The position numbers and the translations under genes are program-made. 64,000 bases of DNA from a virus (lineage: Duplodnaviria > Caudoviricetes): positions 1-64,000 of IMG/VR virus record IMGVR_UViG_3300031555_000648. The stretch is one strand, 5' to 3'. Positions 8,003 through 60,408 of the stretch are shown in pieces. How positions within the stretch are numbered: the stretch's first letter is position 1; the number at the start of each line of letters is the position of its first letter. The notes under the pieces were generated by a model, which saw only the letters and a list, made by a program, of their open reading frames with translations, was not told the DNA's origin and did not search any database.

Positions 8003-10072
8003 TTAATTTACGACATTTCCATCATTTGGGTCATCAGTACTGTCTTTTCCCATGTCACCAAAAATCTTCTCAAGAATACCACCTCTTTGTGGATTAGACA
8101 CTTGAGTGGTCATTTCTTGTGTACCATCTGCTCTCATGATTTTAGTCTGTCGAATAACTTCTTGGCTTCCTGTCTCATACATTCTTTGTAACTGTGCCAT
8201 ATAACCCCATGTCTGGTTCATCATGTTAGTTACATTAGGGTCTGGGAGACCTCCCTCCATGATTTCAGTAATCATACCTCTTTGTAATCTTTGCATTGAG
8301 AAGTCAGCTATACCTTGCATTGCTTGAATAATATCACTCATATCTCTGGTGTTAAAACGCTCAAACATTTTATTGTAGGCACAAGCATAACCTGCTTTAT
8401 ACTCTGGACACTTCTGTGCATTGATACAGCTATCACAAGCCATCTTAGGGTACTTAGCACTATATAATCTCTTAGGTTTTAACACTTGCTTCTGACCTTT
8501 GATAAATCGTCCTTGTGCGTCTCTGACAGGTTCAATACCCTCTTCTCTAAATATCTCATCATCAAGGTCTGAAATCTCTGGTGCATAACTTCCATCAACA
8601 GGTGCAGGAAGATATTTGAGCATAGTGTTTTGTAAATCCATTTCAGTCACATCTGTTGTCTCATATTCTTCGTCTGTAATATAGTCATCACGTTCTTTCA
8701 CCATTCGGTCAAAATTTGTGCCAAGGACAAGAAGTTTATCATTCTTACCTAAAAGAACTTCGGTGTAGAAGTGTTTAAGGTCTGCAATTCTTTCCTCATC
8801 ATCAGCTACAATTCTGTTCACCCACATATCATGAAGACTTTTGATAAGTTCTGGCTTATAAATGTCCTCAATGATTGGTTGGTACTCATCATCTTCCCAA
8901 TTCATGAAAATGGTGAGGTCAATGATACAGTTAATAGCTGTCATCTTGTCCTCTGTGGAAATGTTAAAGGATTTTGCATAGTCCTCCCAATCTAGTTCAT
9001 TACTTGCATTTTCAATCCACAGAATACTTGGGTATTTAATGGAGTCAAGGTCTGTTTCACTTCTCTCAACACTATCTGGTCTTAGCCAATACATACGAGA
9101 TTTTAGCTTCTCCTGCACAAATTCTTCGGCTTCAATAAAAGCATGAACATTAACTCTTACCATTTCTTCTTTGTCTTCATCAAGGAGTTTTTGTTCATCA
9201 AATCCCTTTGCAACAACTTGTGGTAACATAGCACCTTTCCACTTATCTTTCTTGAGCCGAGACATTTTCTTTCCTGTCCAGAAATTGATTTCACCATACT
9301 GCAATCCAACAAGCCATGTAGTAGAGTCAACTGTGTAGAATGGTAACTTGGTTAAAAGTGCTGTCTGTGTCATTCCCATACCATGAACTAAACTCTTGTA
9401 TTTTTCTGCAACTTTTAGTTTTTCAAAACACCACTTTAATGTATCAGAACTACCTCCTGTAACTAAAGATACTCCAACATAGGGGTATCTCTGACAATAT
9501 TGTTCCCATGAAAGTTTTGGTGCTTCTTCATGGTATATGAAACACACAGGAATGCCTGTCTCTAACATAAAAGGTTCAAAGTATTTCTCATTCCAAATCT
9601 GGACTTGCTCACCACCAACAAGAATTTCAAGGTCAAGGTTAGCAATAGCAAATATTATATCACTATTTTTTCTAGCCCATTTAAGATAACCCTCAATGTG
9701 TTTCTCCCACTGCTCAATAGTGTAATCTTCATAGTTAATATCATTCATATATGTGTATGCACCAGAGTCAACAAAGAACTTTACTCCAATTTCTTTATAT
9801 CTTTGAGTACTAAGGTGCTTTCTCTGTACATAGTGGTAAGAAATAAGAAAATTTCTAATACCCATGTCATACAGAATATTAAAATTCTTTTCATCTTCTA
9901 CACCAGAAAACATCATACTAAAAGGTCTTTGTAAGTCCATAACTTCTCTAAGGTTAGAATACTTTGGCTTCTGTTGGTCTTCTTTGCTCTTATTTTGACT
10001 AAATAAGGACTTTTTCTTAATAGGTTGGGTGTTTGGCTGTTCTGCCACTTTATTCATCTTTTTCAGCTTCAT
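8003..10072 (-). CDS. DpdA-like / TGT-fold guanine transglycosylase with a long C-terminal extension carrying a 4-Cys motif
   Basis: FFVDSGAYT and VHGMG...PFYTVDSTTW motifs match the two TGT aspartate motifs; lies next to folE/queC/queD/queE; C-terminal CDSC-x5-C-x8-C. Confidence 0.75.
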   Translation of the reverse strand: MKLKKMNKVAEQPNTQPIKKKSLFSQNKSKEDQQKPKYSNLREVMDLQRPFSMMFSGVEDEKNFNILYDMGIRNFLISYHYVQRKHLSTQRYKEIGVKFFVDSGAYTYMNDINYEDYTIEQWEKHIEGYLKWARKNSDIIFAIANLDLEILVGGEQVQIWNEKYFEPFMLETGIPVCFIYHEEAPKLSWEQYCQRYPYVGVSLVTGGSSDTLKWCFEKLKVAEKYKSLVHGMGMTQTALLTKLPFYTVDSTTWLVGLQYGEINFWTGKKMSRLKKDKWKGAMLPQVVAKGFDEQKLLDEDKEEMVRVNVHAFIEAEEFVQEKLKSRMYWLRPDSVERSETDLDSIKYPSILWIENASNELDWEDYAKSFNISTEDKMTAINCIIDLTIFMNWEDDEYQPIIEDIYKPELIKSLHDMWVNRIVADDEERIADLKHFYTEVLLGKNDKLLVLGTNFDRMVKERDDYITDEEYETTDVTEMDLQNTMLKYLPAPVDGSYAPEISDLDDEIFREEGIEPVRDAQGRFIKGQKQVLKPKRLYSAKYPKMACDSCINAQKCPEYKAGYACAYNKMFERFNTRDMSDIIQAMQGIADFSMQRLQRGMITEIMEGGLPDPNVTNMMNQTWGYMAQLQRMYETGSQEVIRQTKIMRADGTQEMTTQVSNPQRGGILEKIFGDMGKDSTDDPNDGNVVN

Positions 10073-10083
10073 AGCAGGTCACC

Positions 10084-10647
10084 TCACATTCTCTCTTTGA
10101 ACTCTTTGTAAGAGTCTTCAAATCCCTTATTCACTCTTTTGTAATTTGTGTGAGTACTACAATTACTTTCAGCACCTCTACACTTTACACACTGATGTGT
10201 AGCTTCTACCTCTACAAAGATTGCGTGTGGTTCTAAAAGGTCATATAAGTACTCCCCAATCTCTTGTGTCAACTGCTCCTGCAACTGTGGCTTCTTGCTA
10301 AAATACTTCACTACTCTTGGCACTTTAGAAAGACCAATAACTTTATCACTAGGAACATATCCCACAGTAACTTTTCCAGAGAAAGGCAACCAATGGTGTT
10401 CACAGATAGAGTCAAACTCAATGTCTCTTATGATAACCATATCATTGTCATATTCATTTGGGAAAGTTTTCATGCGTGAATTTAATTCCTCAATGTTGTT
10501 ATTATTTCTGTTGGCAAAAAGTTCATTACAGTACATCTTTGCCACTCTAAGAGGTGTTCCTTTATTACTCTCTGTAATAGGAATACCCAAAATTTTCATA
10601 ATGGCTTCAATATGTTCTTTAATCTCTTCTACCTTGTTATCAATCAT
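10084..10647 (-). CDS. folE: GTP cyclohydrolase I
   Basis: SICEHHWLPF, GLSK, PQLQE and HQCVKCRG motifs; AAGGAGG RBS favours start at 10647. Confidence 0.95.
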   Translation of the reverse strand: MIDNKVEEIKEHIEAIMKILGIPITESNKGTPLRVAKMYCNELFANRNNNNIEELNSRMKTFPNEYDNDMVIIRDIEFDSICEHHWLPFSGKVTVGYVPSDKVIGLSKVPRVVKYFSKKPQLQEQLTQEIGEYLYDLLEPHAIFVEVEATHQCVKCRGAESNCSTHTNYKRVNKGFEDSYKEFKERM

Positions 10648-10681
10648 TGATAAATACCTCCTTGATTTCATTGTAATTAAG

Positions 10682-10736: not shown

Positions 10737-11330
10737 TTAAAACTGCTCAAGGTGCTCCACACACTTGCACATTTCATCAAATTGTGGCTTCAAGTGTGGT
10801 GGTGTCCATGGTGAAGAAAAGCAGATAAAGATTAAATCGAACTCTCCTTGTACTTCATCAATATCTGTAGTTGTGGTATAAGGGAACTCTCCTGTCAATG
10901 CTTCTGTGTCACTGTCTTCTCTCATCACCCACTTAATATCTGCGTCTGGTTTAAGGTCTGCAAGGAAACGCAACCAATTACCACAGTCAAGGGTGTTACC
11001 ACCTGTGATGTACATATCATGGTGAAAGTCAATATTGATAATCTCTAAATCCTCATCTGGCTTCACATTGTCAAAGAACTGTGCAATCTCTCTATGGCTG
11101 TCAGCAATTAAAATCTTCCCTGCTTGTCTGCTCTTTAAGAAGTCACACATCTTGTCGTAGTTTGCAATCACACCTAAGTCTCTGATATTGTCGTGGAAGT
11201 CATATCTACTGTTCCAGATAAATTGAGTCAAGGCAGGTGAGAAGTTATCATGACCATCTGGGAAACACATTACTCTTGTGTTCATGTCAGTGTCAATAAA
11301 GTAGTCAAAGTCAATACTTAGTATTCTCAT
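10737..11330 (-). CDS. Arginase/ureohydrolase-fold metallohydrolase (UPF0489-like)
   Basis: LSIDFDYF, DSHRE, INIDFHHD, DCGNW and ICFSSPWTPP motifs. Confidence 0.75.
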   Translation of the reverse strand: MRILSIDFDYFIDTDMNTRVMCFPDGHDNFSPALTQFIWNSRYDFHDNIRDLGVIANYDKMCDFLKSRQAGKILIADSHREIAQFFDNVKPDEDLEIINIDFHHDMYITGGNTLDCGNWLRFLADLKPDADIKWVMREDSDTEALTGEFPYTTTTDIDEVQGEFDLIFICFSSPWTPPHLKPQFDEMCKCVEHLEQF

Positions 11331-11395
11331 TTTGTACCTCCAAATATTTAATTATGCAAGTATTATTATAGCACTTATATCTATAAAACACAAAA

Positions 11396-11423
11396 CACCA
11401 CAGATGACTAATCATCTGTGGTG
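11396..11423 (-). terminator. Rho-independent terminator after the 59-aa peptide gene
   Basis: Perfect 12-bp stem CACCACAGATGA/TCATCTGTGGTG, 4-nt loop, followed by TTTTGTGTTTT. Confidence 0.85.
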
Positions 11424-11452
11424 CTTGCTACTTTTTGGAGTTAAGGTTTCAA

Positions 11453-11632
11453 CTATCGTCCATTAGGTCTTACGTTGTTTACACGTCTCCCATTGATAGC
11501 TTCGATACGACCAAATACAGAAGTACCTGCTCTACGCATAACCTGACCCTCGGTCTCACCTGCTCTACGTCTAGCTCTAGGGTTCTGTCCTACAGTCTCA
11601 CGACTACCACCCTCAGCGTATGCTTTCATCAT
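11453..11632 (-). CDS. 59-aa Arg/Gly-rich peptide MMKAYAEGGSRETVGQNPRARRRAGETEGQVMRRAGTSVFGRIEAINGRRVNNVRPNGR
   Basis: Translated by hand; AAAGGAGG RBS 8 nt upstream; own promoter and terminator; missed by the 60-aa cutoff. Confidence 0.85.
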   Translation of the reverse strand: MMKAYAEGGSRETVGQNPRARRRAGETEGQVMRRAGTSVFGRIEAINGRRVNNVRPNGR

Positions 11633-11727
11633 GGCAATGTCCTCCTTTCATATTTTGCAAGAGTTCATAGAACACTAGGGAATATGAAAAAACCTATGTG
11701 TTAATCCAATTATCTTGCGTTAAGGAT

Positions 11728-11756
11728 AATATACCATACATTGTTATGGTTTTCAA
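11728..11756 (-). promoter_or_regulatory. sigmaA promoter TTGAAA-17-TATATT (extended -10) for the peptide gene; ACCATA-N6-TATGGT palindrome in the spacer
   Basis: Read directly from the minus strand. Confidence 0.7.
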
Positions 11757-11762
11757 GAGGTT

Positions 11763-13430
11763 TTAATATAAAAATGAACATTTTTTACATTCTTCACCAC
11801 ACATTTTAGAATTACAGGTGGTTGTAATTTCATTTTTACCCTTTTTGATAAGATATTCTAAACTATGGTCTCTTATGTTTCCAACAGACAGTTGGTCATA
11901 GTTTTCACTAGACACTTCGGACGCACAACCTAGTAAATAACCATCTGGTGTTACAGTAACTTGATTTGCATATCTGCTACAACAGTCCTCAAGGAAAAGG
12001 ACAAAATTATCTAACACATAGTAGTTAAAGGTAAAGTCCAATACATCTAACATGGAAGATATTTCATTATCTTCGCCTTCAAACAGAACACTTTCATATT
12101 CTATTCCGATATTGAATGAGAAATTCACATCAGTGAATTTCTTTGCAGTGTCTAACACCTGCTTGTAAACTTCAATCAAATTCTCTTTAGAGAGAAGAGG
12201 AAGAAATTCTGCATTACCTATACTTCTGATAGTCCTAATGTAGAAAGACTTTACACACGAATATCTCCAAACTAGATAAGATATAATACTTGACACCTTA
12301 TCATAATTGTTGCTGTGCAGGTCAATAAATATTTCAACATCAATTCCTAATTTATCACATACAGTAAGTGCTTTATCTGTTACTCCTTGAACACTTCTAA
12401 CTCCATTAGTCAGCATAACATCATCAACACTCAAATAAAACTTCTTTAACCCACATTCCTTTAACTCTTTTGCATACTTAGGAATGGTAATTCCATTAGT
12501 AACAATGTCAAAAGTGATAGAAAGATTATCTTCTTTTATCTTGTGTGCATACCACAGAATATCATCATTAAACATTGGCTCTTTCCCAGAGAAGTGAATG
12601 TTTGATACTCCTAACTTTTCAGCTTGGAGAATAACATTATATAATTCTTCTTTAGACAGTACAGGTGACTTAGTTTCTTCAAATCCATAGAAACAGTGTT
12701 TACACCTCAACTGACACAAATTGTTTATAAGAAGTCTTACTTCTTCAATTTTTTGATTAGCAAGAAGACTAATAAAAACAGGGTTATTATAGTCATAACC
12801 ACTCTTAACTAATGCTTTATGATGATGGTCAACTTTCAGAATACCCTCAATATATTCAAGGTCTTGACAGTCGGCACACTTACCACAAGGCTTTCCATTT
12901 ACAGGAGTATCACAACTAAAATAATCTCCAATTTCTACCCCACATTTGTTTGCAAAATAGATAAGGTTTTCTTTTTCAAAAGTGGAAAAAGGTCTTACCA
13001 CCTCAATGTTAGTGAGTGGAATAGAGAAGCTGTTTATACCATCAAAGAACTTGTCACTTGTATCTGTATATCCATGACTATTTAGAGTAGCAAGATACAC
13101 TTTGTCTGCCCCAATAGCTTCTGCATAGGAAAGTGCGTAAGACAAGAAGATTAAGTTCCTATACTCTAAATACTGCTTGTCATACACATTTGAGTCTTTT
13201 GTATAGAACTCTCTGGAAGTCCAATCAATTTTTGGCAGTGTAATTACTTTATGTGTAGCACCAACTTCTTGACTCACTTTATAAGCACACTCACACTGCT
13301 GTTGTTCATTATTTTCTCCATAACAGAAATGCAAAGAATAGATTTCATCTTCCGTTTGGGTCATGTGTAAATACTTCATAAGTACTACACTATCAAAACC
13401 ACCGCTGTTTAATACTACGATTTTTGACAT
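11763..13430 (-). CDS. queC: QueC-like domain fused to a radical SAM + SPASM/Twitch domain, 555 aa
   Basis: VLNSGGFDS, RNLIFLS and SC-x8-CGKCADC; then CQLRCKHC, FSGKEP, VTNG and CCS...VTPDGYLLGC...VGNI; AGGAGG RBS favours start at 13430 rather than 13616. Confidence 0.9.
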   Translation of the reverse strand: MSKIVVLNSGGFDSVVLMKYLHMTQTEDEIYSLHFCYGENNEQQQCECAYKVSQEVGATHKVITLPKIDWTSREFYTKDSNVYDKQYLEYRNLIFLSYALSYAEAIGADKVYLATLNSHGYTDTSDKFFDGINSFSIPLTNIEVVRPFSTFEKENLIYFANKCGVEIGDYFSCDTPVNGKPCGKCADCQDLEYIEGILKVDHHHKALVKSGYDYNNPVFISLLANQKIEEVRLLINNLCQLRCKHCFYGFEETKSPVLSKEELYNVILQAEKLGVSNIHFSGKEPMFNDDILWYAHKIKEDNLSITFDIVTNGITIPKYAKELKECGLKKFYLSVDDVMLTNGVRSVQGVTDKALTVCDKLGIDVEIFIDLHSNNYDKVSSIISYLVWRYSCVKSFYIRTIRSIGNAEFLPLLSKENLIEVYKQVLDTAKKFTDVNFSFNIGIEYESVLFEGEDNEISSMLDVLDFTFNYYVLDNFVLFLEDCCSRYANQVTVTPDGYLLGCASEVSSENYDQLSVGNIRDHSLEYLIKKGKNEITTTCNSKMCGEECKKCSFLY

Positions 13431-13500
13431 AATAAATCCTCCTATAAATAAATGGACAGGTGCTATTAGTATAACACCTGTCTCTATTGTATCATATTTC

Positions 13501-13827
13501 TTACAATCTGCCAATCGTTGCAGGGTTATCACGTCTTGGCTTAAATTGAGGTGTAACAGTAGTGTTAGGAACTGCCTGTTGGAAGCCTCTCTGTGCTGTA
13601 TTGCTAGGCACTTCATTCTTCGGTACTTTAGGTAACTTCATACCTGCGACTTTTGCAATGCTTTCAGCCTGCTTAATCTCTTCGGAAGCAATCTCTTTAG
13701 CACCAATGATTGCACCTTGGTATCTCTCTTTGTCTGCCTTAATCTGCTCTGCCTGTGCTAACACCCTAGCGTCGTCTCGCTGTCTCCACTTCTTTTCATC
13801 TTCTGACATTTTTGCATAATAACTCAT
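13501..13827 (-). CDS. Hypothetical protein, 108 aa (helical N-half, low-complexity tail)
   Basis: ORF track; GAGGT RBS. Confidence 0.75.
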   Translation of the reverse strand: MSYYAKMSEDEKKWRQRDDARVLAQAEQIKADKERYQGAIIGAKEIASEEIKQAESIAKVAGMKLPKVPKNEVPSNTAQRGFQQAVPNTTVTPQFKPRRDNPATIGRL

Positions 13828-13830
13828 GGT

Positions 13831-14472
13831 TTATACCTCTCTTTCTTTGTAAGAAAATTCTCCAAACAACTCATCTTCCCAGAGTTGTCTCTGTTTAACT
13901 GCTTCTTCAAGTGTCTTGAAGTCCTTTGTTCTTCTTATGTCTTTACACTTAATATAAGCATTAAAAGAACCATTGTGTCTAATACGAACACCTTTAGGAA
14001 GAGGTCTATCTTCATTAGGTTTCATATTACAAGAATTTTGAGACTTAGTACATTTCCTTAATTGTGCTTTTCTGTTATCATCTTTGTTATGAAATTTATG
14101 GTCTACCACATCTGAATTAGTTGCTCTCATCACTACTCTATGTAACTGTTTGTGTGGTCTACTAATACACCAATATCCATCTGCATTTTTAGTCCAAGTT
14201 CGATTAAAGGATTTCAATAATGGAATGTCCTCTACATCTACTAAAGCAAAAATGGAGTGGTCTTTGCTCCACATTTTTGCATGGTCTTCATCAAACACTT
14301 CAAATTCATTGAAGCAACCTTTTGAGCAACCACAGTGTGTCTTTCCGTTTAACTCATGAGAGGTTGCATAAAAATAATTCCCACATAATCTACAATAACA
14401 CTTATGTACTTTTGTGCCAAACTCTTTCTTTTCAATACTGACAACATCATAGTGTAAATATCTGTTTTGCAT
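13831..14472 (-). mobile_element. Free-standing HNH homing endonuclease with AP2 DNA-binding domain
   Basis: HRVVM...VVDHKFHNKDDNRKAQLR (HNH); LPKGV...AYI...FKTLEEAVKQR...LFGEF (AP2); RBS favours start at 14472. Confidence 0.9.
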
Positions 14473-14474
14473 AA

Positions 14475-14522
14475 CATTTACCTCCTTAACACTATTATAG
14501 CATAAAGAGGTAAATGACGCAA
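14475..14522 (-). promoter_or_regulatory. RBS-sequestering hairpin (14475-14484 / 14507-14516) with promoter TTGCGT-17-TATAAT whose -10 lies in the loop
   Basis: Perfect 10-bp CATTTACCTC/GAGGTAAATG. Confidence 0.75.
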
Positions 14523-14542
14523 GCAATTTTTACATTAGCAAA

Positions 14543-15181
14543 TTATCTCACACCGATTAGTTTATGGATTTGCAACTGAACCCTTACATTAAGTCTATCT
14601 TCAATAATCCAATCTACTAATTCACTCCCAATGACTGCTTTCTGGTTCTGGTCAAACATAGGACTGACTAAAATAGAAGCCTGTGTTGGGTATTTCTGTA
14701 ACACTTTCTTCATGTAGTCATAGTCTTCTCTGCTACCAATAACAAACTTCACCTCGTCATTGTTCTGTAACTTAAGCAGATTATCAAAGAGGTTCTTTTC
14801 AGAAACCCCACTGCTAGGACATTTAATGTCCATCACATACTTAAAACTGCGTCTGTACCCAAGGTCTTCAATAGGAACACACCCACTTGTCTCAATGGAC
14901 ACTTTATAACCCATGTGCATGAGTTCCCATGTAAGAGGAATGACTTCTTTGTGAATAAGTGGCTCACCACCTGTAATACACACATATTTCACACCCTTAA
15001 ACTTGAGTACTTTATTGACAATGTTCTCAACCGAAATTCTCTTCTTTTGGTCTGGCTTCTGTGGTTGGTCACAGTATGAACACCCTACAGGACACCCAAA
15101 AAGACGGACAAAGACACAGGGAAGTCCACTGTCTGAACTCTCTCCCTGTATGCTACAGAATATTTCATCATAGTACATCAT
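14543..15181 (-). CDS. queE: 7-carboxy-7-deazaguanine synthase (radical SAM)
   Basis: EIFCSIQGE...GLPCVFVRLFGCPVGCSYCD, ITGGEP and QLQIHK motifs; ATGA overlap favours start at 15181. Confidence 0.95.
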   Translation of the reverse strand: MMYYDEIFCSIQGESSDSGLPCVFVRLFGCPVGCSYCDQPQKPDQKKRISVENIVNKVLKFKGVKYVCITGGEPLIHKEVIPLTWELMHMGYKVSIETSGCVPIEDLGYRRSFKYVMDIKCPSSGVSEKNLFDNLLKLQNNDEVKFVIGSREDYDYMKKVLQKYPTQASILVSPMFDQNQKAVIGSELVDWIIEDRLNVRVQLQIHKLIGVR

Positions 15182-15345
15182 TTTCTTCGTCCACCTTTCT
15201 TTCTCAAACACTTGAGGTAATACTTTCGGTTGTATTTCTTGCTGTAACGATATTTTCCACCACCAAGGTGTTCAACATCATAATACTCACCTGTAATCTC
15301 ATAATCAAAATACTTGTAGAAAAGTGCTTTTAATTTCTTTAACAT
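15178..15345 (-). CDS. Small Lys/Tyr-rich protein, 55 aa (MLKKLKALFYKYFDYEITGEYY...)
   Basis: Translated by hand; GGAGGTG RBS; stop overlaps the queE start. Confidence 0.7.
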   Translation of the reverse strand: MLKKLKALFYKYFDYEITGEYYDVEHLGGGKYRYSKKYNRKYYLKCLRKKGGRRK

Positions 15346-15356
15346 GGTAACACCTC

Positions 15357-15824
15357 CTAAGTGGCAGGTTTCATAACAGGTTGCATAACAGGTTGGTCTG
15401 CATACTTAAGAAGTCTTTCTAAAGTACTTACTCTGTCAAGAAGACTGTCCATGACAGGGTTAAACTCTGCATAGCTTGTAGATGTCTCCCATAACTTGCA
15501 GGACACTAAGTACTTGTCCTTAGGTAATTTAGAGATAATATCTACTCCAATCTGCTTCACCATGATTTCTGCTGTTGGATTAGGGAAGTAGTCATTAAGA
15601 AAAGCATGGTCATACCTATCCACTGCTACTTCATTCACGATTTTCTTGAGGTCTTTGAAGTCTAAAATCATGCCACACTTAGGGTCAGAAGTGCTTGTCT
15701 CAATACTACCACCTACAGTCACTTCTAATTTGTAAGAATGACCATGGAGATTGTGACAAGCACCATCATAGTGTGGCAGATTATGACACGCTTCAAAACC
15801 AAATACTTTTGTTACTGTAATCAT
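15357..15824 (-). CDS. queD: 6-carboxy-5,6,7,8-tetrahydropterin synthase
   Basis: FEACHNLP...CHNLHGHSY, LDFKDLK, DHAFLN, PTAE and LWETSTS motifs. Confidence 0.95.
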   Translation of the reverse strand: MITVTKVFGFEACHNLPHYDGACHNLHGHSYKLEVTVGGSIETSTSDPKCGMILDFKDLKKIVNEVAVDRYDHAFLNDYFPNPTAEIMVKQIGVDIISKLPKDKYLVSCKLWETSTSYAEFNPVMDSLLDRVSTLERLLKYADQPVMQPVMKPAT

Positions 15825-34743: not shown

Positions 34744-35100
34744 TTATACCTCCTTTAAGTAATCAGAATATGTCTTAGGTGGAATAGGTGTCATACTAAA
34801 GTGTCTCTGTGAATAGCCATTCTCTTTCTTAGGTCTTAAGTAAAGAGTTCCATTCTCACACTCAATTAAACACTTCTGCCACTTCTTGCTTCTTCCAGAC
34901 GGAATTTCTGCTAACACAATCTGACCTATTTTGAATGGCTTGATTTTGATTTCAAGCATTTCATTCTGCACCTGCTCTTTTCTCTGCTGTAATGCAAAAA
35001 TCTTCTTGTCAAGGTCAGTCACCTCACTCATCAGTTCTAAGAACTTTTCATCATCTTTTTCCTTTGGACTCACTGCTTTACTTGCTTTCTTCAATGCCAT
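34744..35100 (-). CDS. Hypothetical coiled-coil protein
   Basis: Track ORF 34744-35139; AGGAGG RBS favours start at 35100. Confidence 0.7.
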   Translation of the reverse strand: MALKKASKAVSPKEKDDEKFLELMSEVTDLDKKIFALQQRKEQVQNEMLEIKIKPFKIGQIVLAEIPSGRSKKWQKCLIECENGTLYLRPKKENGYSQRHFSMTPIPPKTYSDYLKEV

Positions 35101-35419
35101 GGTCTCTTCCTCCTTTAAATTTATTATAGTCATCTTCACTCACAAAATAGTGAGAATAATAACCCAACTCTGCATTGCAATTATAGTACTCATAATCACT
35201 TACTGACCTGTCAAACTTATTTATGTTATGCTCACAGGTTTTAACATTGATAGTTAATGGCTTTATCCAAGGACTTGACCCATCTACAGCACTATCATGA
35301 ACTTTACAAGGGAGTAACAAAATGCTACACCCCTGTCTATACATCTTTCTGGCAGTAGGTTTATTGACTCTCTTATAATTCACCTCTAAAAACCTCCTGT
35401 CTCTTATCTTCACTGTCAA
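35078..35419 (-). CDS. Hypothetical protein, 113 aa
   Basis: ORF track. Confidence 0.6.
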   Translation of the reverse strand: MTVKIRDRRFLEVNYKRVNKPTARKMYRQGCSILLLPCKVHDSAVDGSSPWIKPLTINVKTCEHNINKFDRSVSDYEYYNCNAELGYYSHYFVSEDDYNKFKGGRDHGIEESK

Positions 35420-59925: not shown

Positions 59926-60408
59926 TTACAGGAAGTACTCAAACTGCATTGTAAGAGTCTCAATGATTACATCATCACTTGTTGCGTCAAGGTCTCCGCA
60001 CTCATACTTACTGAACCAACATTCAGCAAGTTGGAACTCTCTACGAACATTACCAAAGCGGTCACAAACTTGGATAACCACAGTGCTTCTACAGTTGTTA
60101 TTGTTAAACACTGTTTCATACTGTGTCTGCAAGTAGTCATCAGCATACATACCTCTTTCAAAGGTAATCTCACCTACAGACTCTCTGCCCGGAAGTTTGT
60201 GTGCGTGTTCGTACATATTCTCCAAGTACTCAACAACTGCTACTTCTCTACTAAGACCTCCGACTTTCTGGAAACCAACACCTGTTGGAAGACCACTAAT
60301 CTGAACCTTAAACATAAAGGACTGTAAAGGGTCTTGCTCAATGGTTCTGGAAGCAAAAGCCTTAGTAGTAATAACGTCTTTCAAAATCTTTGCAAATTTA
60401 TTCATCAC
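59926..60408 (-). CDS. Tail tube protein (T4 gp19-like)
   Basis: DPL.SF.FKV.I, GFQKV.GL, KLPGR...GEITFERG motifs. Confidence 0.92.
   Translation of the reverse strand: MMNKFAKILKDVITTKAFASRTIEQDPLQSFMFKVQISGLPTGVGFQKVGGLSREVAVVEYLENMYEHAHKLPGRESVGEITFERGMYADDYLQTQYETVFNNNNCRSTVVIQVCDRFGNVRREFQLAECWFSKYECGDLDATSDDVIIETLTMQFEYFL

Follow-up and report, generated by a model that had tools for sequence, protein, structure and literature searches.

The stretch of DNA analysed here (the window, 64,000 nucleotides) carries a phage 7-deazaguanine DNA-modification cluster on the minus strand, in which a small gene for a 59-residue arginine-rich peptide lies 131 nt downstream of a gene for a QueC-family domain fused to a radical-SAM/SPASM domain (QueC-rSAM) and upstream of the genes for FolE and a DpdA-like transglycosylase (Table 1). 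The peptide gene is accompanied by its own promoter-like site, leader and terminator, and the cluster also encodes QueE and QueD, giving a full FolE-QueD-QueE-QueC set. The peptide contains 12 Arg and 1 Lys and no Cys, Trp, Leu, His or Asp. It contains RRAG twice, encoded by the 12-nt repeat CGTAGAGCAGGT on the coding strand, and NGR twice. The original prediction described a hidden monocistronic gene with these features, a structured leader and a ribosome-binding site, and the features it listed are all present in the sequence.

Table 1. Positions of the peptide gene, its expression signals and associated phage genes (window coordinates unless stated; ↓ marks the predicted cleavage site).
Feature	Coordinates	Strand	Description
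Promoter-like site	11728..11756	-	-35 TTGAAA (11756-11751), 17-nt spacer, TG (11736-11735), -10 TATATT (11733-11728)
Leader RNA element	11633..11721	-	Conserved; no Rfam family matches
Leader helix P1	11718-11713 with 11662-11657	-
Leader helix P2	11702-11693 with 11679-11671	-	Hairpin loop 11692-11680
Leader pseudoknot	11689-11681 with 11654-11646	-	Loop bases with tail bases
Shine-Dalgarno sequence	11645-11641	-	GGAGG
Peptide gene	11453..11632	-	59 aa
Predicted propeptide	11632-11618	-	Residues 1-5
Predicted mature N-terminus	11617-11615	-	Ala6
Residue 7	11614-11612	-	Glu; position that tracks the radical-SAM domain
Intrinsic terminator	11393..11426	-	Terminator of the peptide unit
QueC-rSAM	11763..13430	-	555 aa from the Met at 13430; Pfam and NCBIfam matches; at least 194 homologous clusters; AlphaFold2 pLDDT 90
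197-aa protein	10737..11330	-	Directly downstream of the peptide terminator; no Pfam, PHROG or NCBIfam match and no tblastn match in phages; absent from the same position in most related loci
GTP cyclohydrolase I (FolE)	10084..10671	-
DpdA-like DNA guanine transglycosylase (TGT family)	8003..10072	-	689 aa; phrog_887, E 4.7e-73; 42.5% identical to the Bacillus phage BCD7 homologue
QueE (7-carboxy-7-deazaguanine synthase)	14543..15211	-	TIGR04349, E 5.4e-63
QueD	15357..15824	-	TIGR03367, E 1.1e-25
Tail tube protein	59926..60405	-	phrog_4542; N-terminal motif ..TTKAF↓ASRT
Major head protein	64970-65992 of the genome		Outside the window; ..AVKAF↓ADTT
Scaffold-like protein	66029-66850 of the genome		Outside the window; ..SLRAF↓ADEG

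We first assessed whether the ORF is a genuine gene. The peptide had no match in Pfam, PHROGs, NCBIfam, PDB sequences or the ESM Atlas, and searches of the phage collection with the region (megablast) and with the peptide (tblastn) found nothing. Single-protein and peptide-alignment scans of IMG/VR and JGI metagenomes, as well as a search with a back-translated DNA pattern, also returned no hits. Related loci were instead reached using an alignment of the QueC-rSAM fusion. In these, one or two small basic peptides lie 90-180 nt downstream of QueC and upstream of FolE-DpdA in 69 of 70 evaluable loci, which come from a family of gut and Bacillus phages that includes the cultured Bacillus phage BCD7, where the peptides are gp023 and gp024, and in which QueC identity falls to about 33%. 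Homologues of 56-68 aa share 49-85% identity, and dN/dS is 0.13-0.44 in most lineages, indicating purifying selection, although the tail of the peptide evolves fast (dN/dS up to 1.4 in one lineage). For the closest homologues (P0002-P0007), which were seen as proteins only, linkage to fusion proteins is inferred solely from the equal size of the contigs that carry the two. The RRAG and NGR repeats are not conserved in the more distant homologues P0006 and P0007 or in other lineages; the conserved mid and C-terminal motifs are x-R-x-G and R-x-R-G-R. A search for fused or longer forms of the peptide found none, which is weak evidence. The AlphaFold2 model of the peptide monomer has a pLDDT of 52.8 with no confident fold, consistent with disorder.

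Each expression signal was then compared with chance and with related loci. Matches to the promoter pattern are as common as chance in this AT-rich DNA (28 found, 26.5 expected). However, a promoter-like site recurs at this position in relatives, with an extended -10 in 21 of 37 distinct leaders compared with 7.7 in shuffles. The 6-bp palindrome in the spacer (ACCATA/TATGGT) is present but is not seen in relatives. The terminator is strong (z = -5.15, 0 of 200 shuffles), and a terminator-like hairpin (a stable stem followed by a T-run) follows the peptide gene in 18 of 23 related loci examined.

The two pairing arms that the original prediction named in the leader appear in the minimum-free-energy fold, but the folding energy is no better than that of shuffles (z = +0.15), so the structure is not more than chance from this one sequence. 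RNAalifold on a plain MAFFT alignment of the leaders gave no structure, as the helices were out of register, and we therefore used covariance models. A model built from 4 sequences found the element directly upstream of the peptide ATG in 11 further loci (E 1.6e-8 to 9.5e-3). Helices P1 and P2 are 94-98% paired, and all 14 pairs show changes on both sides. Comparison also supported a pseudoknot that had not been predicted, in which the hairpin loop pairs with the bases directly 5' of the Shine-Dalgarno sequence: the loop-tail helix is 78.6% paired compared with 62.7% in shuffles, with covariation of 0.314 compared with 0.109, and each loop's own tail ranks 1-3 of 15 in 12 of 15 lineages. In a variant class, the loop pairs with the Shine-Dalgarno sequence itself. 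The leader occurs with very different peptide tails. No Rfam 15 family matched, with no hit at E up to 10 in the window region or at E up to 1 in 10 related loci, and these searches covered the preQ1 riboswitch families (RF00522, RF01054, RF02680). No second strong copy was found in the phage genome, and none was found in 150 sampled Clostridia-class genomes. Like preQ1 riboswitches of classes I-III (PMC11625349), this is a pseudoknotted 5' leader in a 7-deazaguanine pathway context whose pseudoknot helix abuts or includes the Shine-Dalgarno sequence. It differs in its architecture, a long P1-P2 hairpin of about 75 nt whose loop pairs with the stretch just before the Shine-Dalgarno sequence, and in preceding a peptide gene rather than que or transporter genes.

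The N-terminus of the peptide (MMKAY↓AE) carries a motif also found near the N-termini of phage structural proteins. The family consensus is M-h-h-[KN]-[AV]-aromatic-A-x, in which Ala is invariant in 24 aligned members and the preceding residue is Y, F or H in most, but can be Cys, Leu, Gln or Asn. In seven phages (the phage studied here, G000; BCD7; and five further phages), the motif of the peptide matches, lineage by lineage, that of the same phage's major head and scaffold-like proteins, and in G000 and BCD7 a tail-tube protein carries it too. The motif resembles the site cleaved by Prp in ribosomal protein L27, MLxx(D/N)LQ(F/L)F'A(S/H)KK, and the capsid and scaffold sites of phage 80alpha (PMC9405229, PMC5744158), where a short hydrophobic extension likewise ends in an aromatic residue followed by Ala. 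It lacks the full L27 motif, being K-A-[FY]↓A without the N-L-Q core in this phage, although one relative's capsid has NLQTF↓AG. A profile comparison (hhalign) of the peptide family with L27 found no homology (probability 0.05%). Prp (PF04327) is absent from G000 and BCD7, and no head-module ORF that was searched matched a prohead protease, although this search was not exhaustive for other protease families; the scaffold-like ORF has no PHROG match. Prp and long L27 are encoded in two metagenome-assembled genomes in which related phage contigs were binned. The mature peptide therefore probably starts at Ala6, with cleavage itself inferred from the shared motif, and tail-tube proteins and a small non-structural peptide would be newly proposed substrates.

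Residue 7, the second residue of the predicted mature peptide, tracks the presence of the radical-SAM/SPASM domain. It is E/Q in 19 of 20 lineages where this domain accompanies QueC and in 1 of 24 without it. The exceptions are L019 (domain present, Gly) and L041 (no domain seen, Glu, on a 1.2-kb contig). On the QueC tree, the domain changes state at least 10 times and residue 7 changes 9 times; in 5 independent pairs on well-supported branches, residue 7 moves the same way in 4.8 and the opposite way in 0 (sign test, p = 0.06). Capsid and scaffold sites carry E/D/A/G at the equivalent position whether or not the domain is present, and the constraint is therefore specific to the peptide and not set by the protease.

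In Foldseek searches with the predicted structure of the fusion, the radical-SAM part is nearest to SkfB, SuiB, PqqE and CteB, and the QueC part is nearest to Cap9, then QueC. A MoaA-like three-Cys auxiliary cluster, which would imply a nucleobase substrate, was considered, but the C-terminal Cys pattern and the fold matches fit SPASM peptide maturases better. The QueC domain is atypical in lacking parts of the canonical signature (YxQxHxxE, VPxRN, YPDC and the Tyr after the first zinc-binding Cys; PMC13329287). By sequence, however, it is closer to canonical QueC (2pg3, E 2.5e-11) than to Cap9 (E 0.002), and it keeps the equivalents of three mutationally essential residues (Tyr35, Arg99, Tyr131).

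Considering these data together, the observation of a hidden peptide gene with its own expression unit is confirmed. Its proposed interpretation, a monocistronic gene with a structured leader encoding either a precursor with repeated cores or a protamine-like packaging peptide, is supported only in part: the gene and its leader are supported by conservation of the peptide, promoter, leader and terminator across many phages, the repeated cores are not, and packaging is not excluded. We tentatively favor, while regarding it as less likely than not, a reading in which the peptide is a trimmed, disordered, strongly basic accessory of the 7-deazaguanine module and the substrate or partner of QueC-rSAM. 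In this view, the first five residues would be removed by the same protease that trims this phage's capsid, scaffold-like and tail-tube proteins, most likely the host's Prp-type L27 protease, exposing Ala6 followed by a flexible Gly/Ser-rich stretch. The new N-terminal Ala-Glu would be the substrate, or at least the docking site, of the adjacent enzyme, whose QueC-family domain would ligate 7-carboxy-7-deazaguanine to the free N-terminal amine and whose radical-SAM/SPASM domain would then act on or near the second residue. The Arg-rich tail (net charge about +7) would bind nucleic acid and so bring the modified N-terminus, or the enzymes, to phage DNA where DpdA works. Synthesis would be set at the level of translation by the leader, with a pathway metabolite or the peptide as possible triggers. 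While the gene, its synteny and the leader structure (by covariation) rest on the comparisons made here, the remainder is inference: cleavage from a shared motif, ligation and radical-SAM action from synteny, covariation and analogy, nucleic-acid binding from composition alone, and the translational switch itself.

The precedent for this reading is that QueC-family enzymes conjugate a deazaguanine to the disordered N-terminus of a neighbouring partner protein, with a TGT-family protein binding the product (10.1101/2025.04.06.647259; PMC13279940). In the Cap9-CdnD-Cap10 system of type IV CBASS (Wassarman et al, 2025), a QueC-family enzyme is likewise encoded next to a partner whose conserved, unstructured N-terminus ends in a small residue followed by a Gly/Ser-rich stretch, with a TGT-family protein in the same cluster. 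Here, by contrast, the cluster is for phage DNA modification rather than defence, the partner would be a free basic peptide rather than an enzyme, the full CDG pathway is encoded alongside, and many members carry the fused radical-SAM/SPASM domain. The M(G/S)G(G/S)GG or MGTS motif with Gly2 as acceptor is absent; known acceptors start with Gly exposed by Met removal, whereas the predicted acceptor here is Ala exposed by endoproteolysis. In QatABCD, the QueC-family protein QatC is paired with QatB, which has a long disordered N-terminal tail and a conserved terminal motif essential for function, and where the chemistry is also still unproven; QatC has a remodelled active site and its own extensions, and QatB has a folded helical domain and an MGTS start (PMC13279940). 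Some evidence weighs against the favored reading. The predicted acceptor residue differs from the known ones, the QueC domain looks fairly ordinary by sequence, and the covariation of residue 7 with the radical-SAM domain is imperfect. Ordinary preQ0 synthesis by the full enzyme set would explain QueC without any peptide, the peptide also occurs with plain QueC (including in BCD7), so the radical-SAM domain cannot be its only reason for existing, and the invariant Ala is already explained by the cleavage motif and is not independent support for N-terminal chemistry.

Phage deazaguanine clusters have been annotated as FolE-QueD-QueE-QueC-DpdA, and the papers we read mention no peptide, yet a small basic peptide is a near-universal, separately regulated member of the cluster in one large phage lineage. 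If the reading is correct, the recently found nucleobase-on-protein chemistry (2025-26) would extend from bacterial immunity into phages, which would use protein or peptide deazaguanylation, possibly as a step towards a new DNA modification. The leader is a candidate new regulatory element, and the shared motif suggests that Prp-type processing extends well beyond staphylococcal phage capsids, to tail proteins and non-structural peptides. A more far-reaching version, unlikely but not excluded, is that DpdA exchanges a peptide-bearing deazaguanine, ligated to the trimmed N-terminal alanine and tailored at the adjacent Glu, into phage DNA, decorating the genome with covalently attached arginine-rich peptides, and that the leader is a new riboswitch class that senses a 7-deazapurine intermediate.

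Two alternatives are unlikely but survive about equally well. First, the peptide may be a packaged, protamine-like internal peptide, packed and perhaps injected with the modified DNA to neutralise charge or to counter restriction enzymes that depend on the modification. T4 internal proteins with capsid-targeting sequences are small basic proteins whose N-terminal signal and cleavage motif are shared with head proteins, although the gene location and expression signals differ here. The motif shared with head and scaffold-like proteins, the net charge, a pI of 12, probable disorder, and a strong promoter and terminator suggestive of abundant expression are consistent with this. However, the same motif on a tail-tube protein suggests that the protease acts in the cytoplasm and that the motif need not mark head contents, the gene lies inside the QueC/FolE/DpdA cluster and never in the head module, and the radical-SAM covariation and the regulated leader would be left unexplained. 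Second, the peptide may be an unmodified arginine-rich accessory or regulator that binds DNA to help DpdA reach its sites, or binds RNA as arginine-rich motif peptides do, including its own leader for autoregulation, with residue 7 only a docking contact with the radical-SAM domain. The Arg-rich blocks (RARRRA, RRAG), the conserved mid and C-terminal motifs, probable disorder and a structured leader that could be a protein-binding site are consistent with this, and the absence of the leader from the sampled Clostridia-class genomes suggests a phage-private regulator more than a general riboswitch. However, this gives no reason for tight synteny with QueC in particular, and it is the leader and the N-terminus, rather than the tail, that are conserved.

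A classical RiPP, with repeated cores cross-linked by the radical-SAM/SPASM enzyme and released as a bioactive peptide, is very unlikely. The adjacent domain has a predicted maturase-like fold, a peptide residue covaries with its presence, and Y/F/H-A-E/Q formally fits the triceptide aromatic-X2-X3 motif (PMC11499958), such that a cyclophane on Y-A-E was considered. However, the repeats are not conserved, the aromatic position is variable and, as the P1 residue of a predicted cleavage site, would be removed, the domain is fused to QueC, the peptide family also exists where no radical-SAM domain is present, and no RiPP recognition domain, dedicated peptidase or exporter appears among the cluster's proteins in Pfam, PHROG or NCBIfam; the peptide does look like a precursor in another sense, in its predicted propeptide, its position next to the radical-SAM/SPASM domain and the residue that tracks that domain. 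Still less likely is a decoy for the host Prp protease or a mimic of the L27 N-terminal tail that interferes with host ribosome maturation, as the resemblance to L27 (aromatic↓Ala followed by a Gly-rich basic stretch) and the strong expression signals are offset by the lack of homology, the fact that the phage's own capsid would need the same protease, and the unexplained link to QueC and the radical-SAM covariation. A chance ORF, suggested by its short length below usual calling thresholds and lack of family matches, is effectively refuted by amino-acid conservation with synonymous change, conserved Shine-Dalgarno sequence, promoter and terminator, and the syntenic position.

The window is the first 64 kb of an 84,457-bp IMG/VR virus record (98% complete, 38% G+C) whose genes lie almost entirely on the minus strand. 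The original prediction of a short arginine-rich peptide gene held: a minus-strand ORF encoding 59 residues is present, with the composition and the two short repeats described. Its interpretation was only partly supported, as set out below. The ORF lies inside a 7-deazaguanine cluster that, in transcription order, reads QueD, QueE, an HNH endonuclease, a 108-aa ORF, QueC fused to a radical-SAM/SPASM domain (QueC-rSAM), the peptide, a 197-aa protein with no family match, FolE and a 689-aa DpdA-like transglycosylase. As QueE is encoded separately, the radical-SAM domain fused to QueC is an extra enzyme. The HNH endonuclease (phrog_99), which sits between QueE and the QueC block, looks like a mobile insertion, and one relative (L012) has one between the peptide and FolE. 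The mechanical ORF of QueC-rSAM extends 62 codons upstream of the likely start (Met at 13430) and overlaps the 108-aa ORF, but this extension is probably not translated.

Coordinates of features in the window, in the rest of the genome and in related loci (L numbers denote loci collected through QueC-rSAM; empty cells, not stated)
Feature	Sequence	Coordinates	Strand
QueD	window	15357-15824	
QueE	window	14543-15211	
HNH endonuclease (phrog_99)	window	13831-14526	-
Second small-protein family	window	13501-13827	-
Second small-protein family	L004	7157-7546	
Second small-protein family	L019	4976-5212	
Second small-protein family	L040	1452-1679	
Second small-protein family	L043	5241-5480	
Second small-protein family	L078	5223-5441	
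Upstream extension of the QueC-rSAM ORF	window	13431-13616	-
QueC-rSAM	window	11763-13430	
Leader pseudoknot, loop strand with tail strand	window	11689-11681 with 11654-11646	
59-aa peptide	window	11453-11632	-
FolE	window	10084-10671	
DpdA-like transglycosylase	window	8003-10072	
Weak match to the leader models	window	35098-35193	-
Tail tube protein	window	59926-60405	-
Major head and scaffold-like proteins	genome, outside the window	64970-65992 and 66029-66850	
Third small-protein family	L003	7077-7304	
Third small-protein family	L004	7105-7275	
Third small-protein family	L040	1269-1412	
Third small-protein family	L043	5036-5227	
296-aa ORF with propeptide motif	L018	393-1280	+
217-aa protein with WVTINGVHV motif	L078	4567-5220	+
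Separate radical-SAM gene	L040	2238-3128	+
QueC with other C-terminal extension	L014	4021-5364	+
QueC with other C-terminal extension	L079	1328-2818	+

We first assessed whether the ORF is a gene, and it is. Sequence searches of two very large protein collections found a small family of 56–68-aa proteins that are 49–85% identical and known only from metagenomes, while no relative exists in Pfam, PHROG, NCBIfam, PDB or the ESM Atlas. Loci were collected through the neighboring enzyme: QueC-rSAM has at least 194 homologous clusters, and an alignment of 36 of these retrieved 15 IMG/VR loci, 57 metagenome loci and 9 genome loci. Considering the 70 loci that hold a QueC of this family and enough downstream sequence, 69 have one or two small basic ORFs (41–95 aa) located 90–180 nt after QueC and before FolE-DpdA, whether or not QueC carries the radical-SAM domain. 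Cultured Bacillus phage BCD7 has two of them, annotated as hypothetical gp024 and gp023. Two of the loci (L038 and L063) are copies of the QueC-peptide region about 69 kb apart on the same 137-kb contig (BNJT01002654.1), which could be a concatemer or an assembly duplication. Pairwise dN/dS is 0.13–0.44 in most lineages and higher (0.4–1.4) in one. The family alignment has three conserved blocks, namely an N-terminal motif with an invariant Ala, a middle x-R-x-G block and a C-terminal R-x-R-G-R block, whereas the RRAG and NGR repeats emphasized in the original prediction are peculiar to the window's subfamily. AlphaFold2 gives no confident fold for the peptide (pLDDT 52.8).

For the expression unit, the promoter match on its own is no better than chance in this sequence. 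Nevertheless, a promoter-like site recurs between QueC and the peptide in relatives, with an extended -10 in 21 of 37 distinct leaders (7.7 in shuffles) and a -35/-10 pair in 15 (5.7 in shuffles). The terminator is strong (z = -5.15), and a terminator-like hairpin (a stable stem followed by a T-run) follows the peptide gene in 18 of 23 loci examined. The reading of the gene as monocistronic is therefore supported by conservation.

Folded alone, the leader is no more stable than shuffles (z = +0.15). However, lining up the leaders of distant loci showed a common plan, consisting of an outer helix P1, an inner helix P2, a 12–16-nt loop (UKUUU..AUAUUC) and, directly after P1, a stretch that is the reverse complement of the loop, followed by AAAGGAGG. 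A covariance model built from four sequences found the element immediately upstream of the peptide start codon in 11 further loci (E 1.6e-8 to 9.5e-3) and found one copy in the window, and a second model aligned 20 copies. On that alignment P1 and P2 are 94–98% paired and all 14 pairs change on both sides, with a covariation score of 0.607, against 0.184 +/- 0.020 in shuffles (0 of 500) and at most 0.118 when the partners are slid, although it should be considered that the alignment was fitted to the model. The pseudoknot was tested in two ways. First, the duplex of each loop with its own tail averages -4.8 kcal/mol, against -2.3 with tails from other lineages, and the own tail ranks 1–3 of 15 in 12 of 15 lineages. 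Second, on a pseudoknot-fitted alignment it is 78.6% paired against 62.7% in shuffles, with covariation of 0.314 against 0.109 (0 of 500), and 6 of 8 pairs change on both sides. In the window, the pseudoknot ends one base from GGAGG, and in a variant class the loop (CCUUUCA) is a direct anti-Shine-Dalgarno sequence. Rfam 15 has no match in the window or in ten related loci. There is no second strong copy in the phage, where a weak match to the leader models (E 0.04–0.08) probably arises from the Shine-Dalgarno and start-codon part of the model, and there is none in 150 sampled Clostridia-class genomes. The logic resembles preQ1 riboswitches, which are all pseudoknots acting on the ribosome-binding site (PMC11625349), but the element fails membership of these families; any trigger could be a metabolite, the peptide or temperature.

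The N-terminus of the family reads M-(hydrophobic)1-4-[K/N]-[A/V]-[Y/F/H]-A-x. Searching the whole phage for this motif showed it near the N-termini of three structural proteins, the major head protein (..AVKAF'ADTT, where the apostrophe marks the predicted cleavage position), the scaffold-like protein next to it (..SLRAF'ADEG) and a tail tube protein (..TTKAF'ASRT). BCD7 shows the same pattern, as its head protein has LFQNVF'AD, gp101 has MFMTVH'AE, tail tube gp092 has LFMNVH'AD, and the two peptides have MLFMNVF'AT and MLFLNVY'AT. Five further phages show lineage-matched motifs on the capsid, the scaffold-like protein and the peptide, with one capsid having NLQTF'AG. In addition, a 296-aa ORF upstream of QueC in locus L018 starts with the same propeptide motif (MLFINAH'AD) followed by WVTINGVHV, and locus L078 has a 217-aa protein with the WVTINGVHV motif right after its peptide; neither has a Pfam match. 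This is the pattern of the Prp system: Firmicute L27 carries the extension MLxx(D/N)LQ(F/L)F'A(S/H)KK, and phage 80alpha, which has no prohead protease, has the same site on its capsid and scaffold proteins, which are cut by host Prp (PMC9405229). Two genomes in which related phage contigs were binned encode long L27 (..NLQFF'AHKKG and ..NIQLF'AHKKG) with Prp next to it, while this phage (G000) and BCD7 encode no Prp. The K/R-A-F'A propeptides of the structural proteins suggest Prp-type processing in this phage group, including of a tail protein. From these motifs we infer, without direct evidence of cleavage, that the peptide is trimmed to a 54-residue form starting at Ala6, with a pI of 12 and a net charge of about +7. 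Apart from this short motif, the peptide is not homologous to L27.

We next tested whether the presence of the radical-SAM domain tracks a residue of the peptide. The residue after the invariant Ala is Glu or Gln in 19 of 20 loci that have the domain, including one locus where the domain is a separate gene, the exception being L019. It is Gly, Ser, Thr, Val, Ile or His in 23 of 24 loci without the domain, the exception being L041, a 1.2-kb contig. On a QueC-domain tree, the domain changes state at least 10 times and the residue 9 times. In five independent pairs on well-supported branches, the residue moves the same way in 4.8 and the opposite way in 0 (p = 0.06, the best that five pairs can give). 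The predicted capsid and scaffold cleavage sites carry E, D, A or G at the equivalent position whether or not the domain is present, and the constraint therefore belongs to the peptide and not to the protease. In one lineage (L040) the radical-SAM protein is a separate gene after FolE and is not fused to QueC, and the peptide there has Gln at the tracking position. The QueC proteins of loci L014 and L079 have other C-terminal extensions of about 240–300 residues that match no Pfam family and have no CxxxCxxC motif, and their phages carry two peptides with Thr, Val, Ile, Gly or Ser at the tracking position.

The fusion protein models with high confidence (pLDDT 90). In the predicted structure its radical-SAM part is closest to the peptide maturases SkfB, SuiB, PqqE and CteB, and its QueC part is closest to Cap9, followed by canonical QueC, while the C-terminal cysteines fit a SPASM domain. 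Cap9, a QueC-family enzyme of type IV CBASS, ligates 7-carboxy-7-deazaguanine to the free N-terminal amine of its neighboring partner protein, which has a flexible Gly/Ser-rich N-terminus, and the TGT-family Cap10 then holds the modified N-terminus in its base pocket. QatC and QatB appear to follow the same logic. A 2026 survey of the QueC family defines the canonical signature and mentions neither phage peptides nor radical-SAM fusions. The phage QueC domain keeps the P-loop, the zinc site and the equivalents of three mutationally essential residues, but it lacks the Gln, His and Glu of YxQxHxxE, the Val-Pro of VPxRN and the Pro and Cys of YPDC, and it has Asp where canonical QueC has an essential Tyr after the first zinc-binding Cys (Cap9 has Glu there). 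By sequence it is still nearer canonical QueC than Cap9. The phage system therefore has the cast of a deazaguanylation system, with a QueC-family enzyme, a partner with a predicted flexible small-residue N-terminus and a TGT-family enzyme, although it fails the defining Gly motif and the chemistry itself is only inferred by analogy.

Overall, the analysis establishes a real gene belonging to an undescribed family tied to phage QueC, with comparative support for its promoter-like site, leader structure and terminator, whereas the mechanism we propose is inferred. Tentatively, we consider it most likely that the peptide is trimmed by a Prp-type protease, that it is the substrate or partner of QueC-rSAM at its new N-terminal Ala-Glu, and that its production is gated by a pseudoknot at the ribosome-binding site. 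A packaged protamine-like peptide, as raised in the original prediction, and an unmodified nucleic-acid-binding regulator both remain possible. The classical RiPP reading with repeated cores is unlikely.

These clusters also contain two further small-protein families. The second conserved family, present in the window and in five of the related loci, has a helical N-terminal part (YDWxxREDAxxL..) and a C-terminal R-R-N-P-A-T-I-G-x-L motif, with the window copy ending ..RRDNPATIGRL, and has no Pfam or PHROG match. The third (47–75 aa) has an N-K-A-T-V-G-x-L motif and lies between the peptide and FolE in several lineages, and the R-E-T-V-G-Q-N stretch of the window peptide faintly resembles it.
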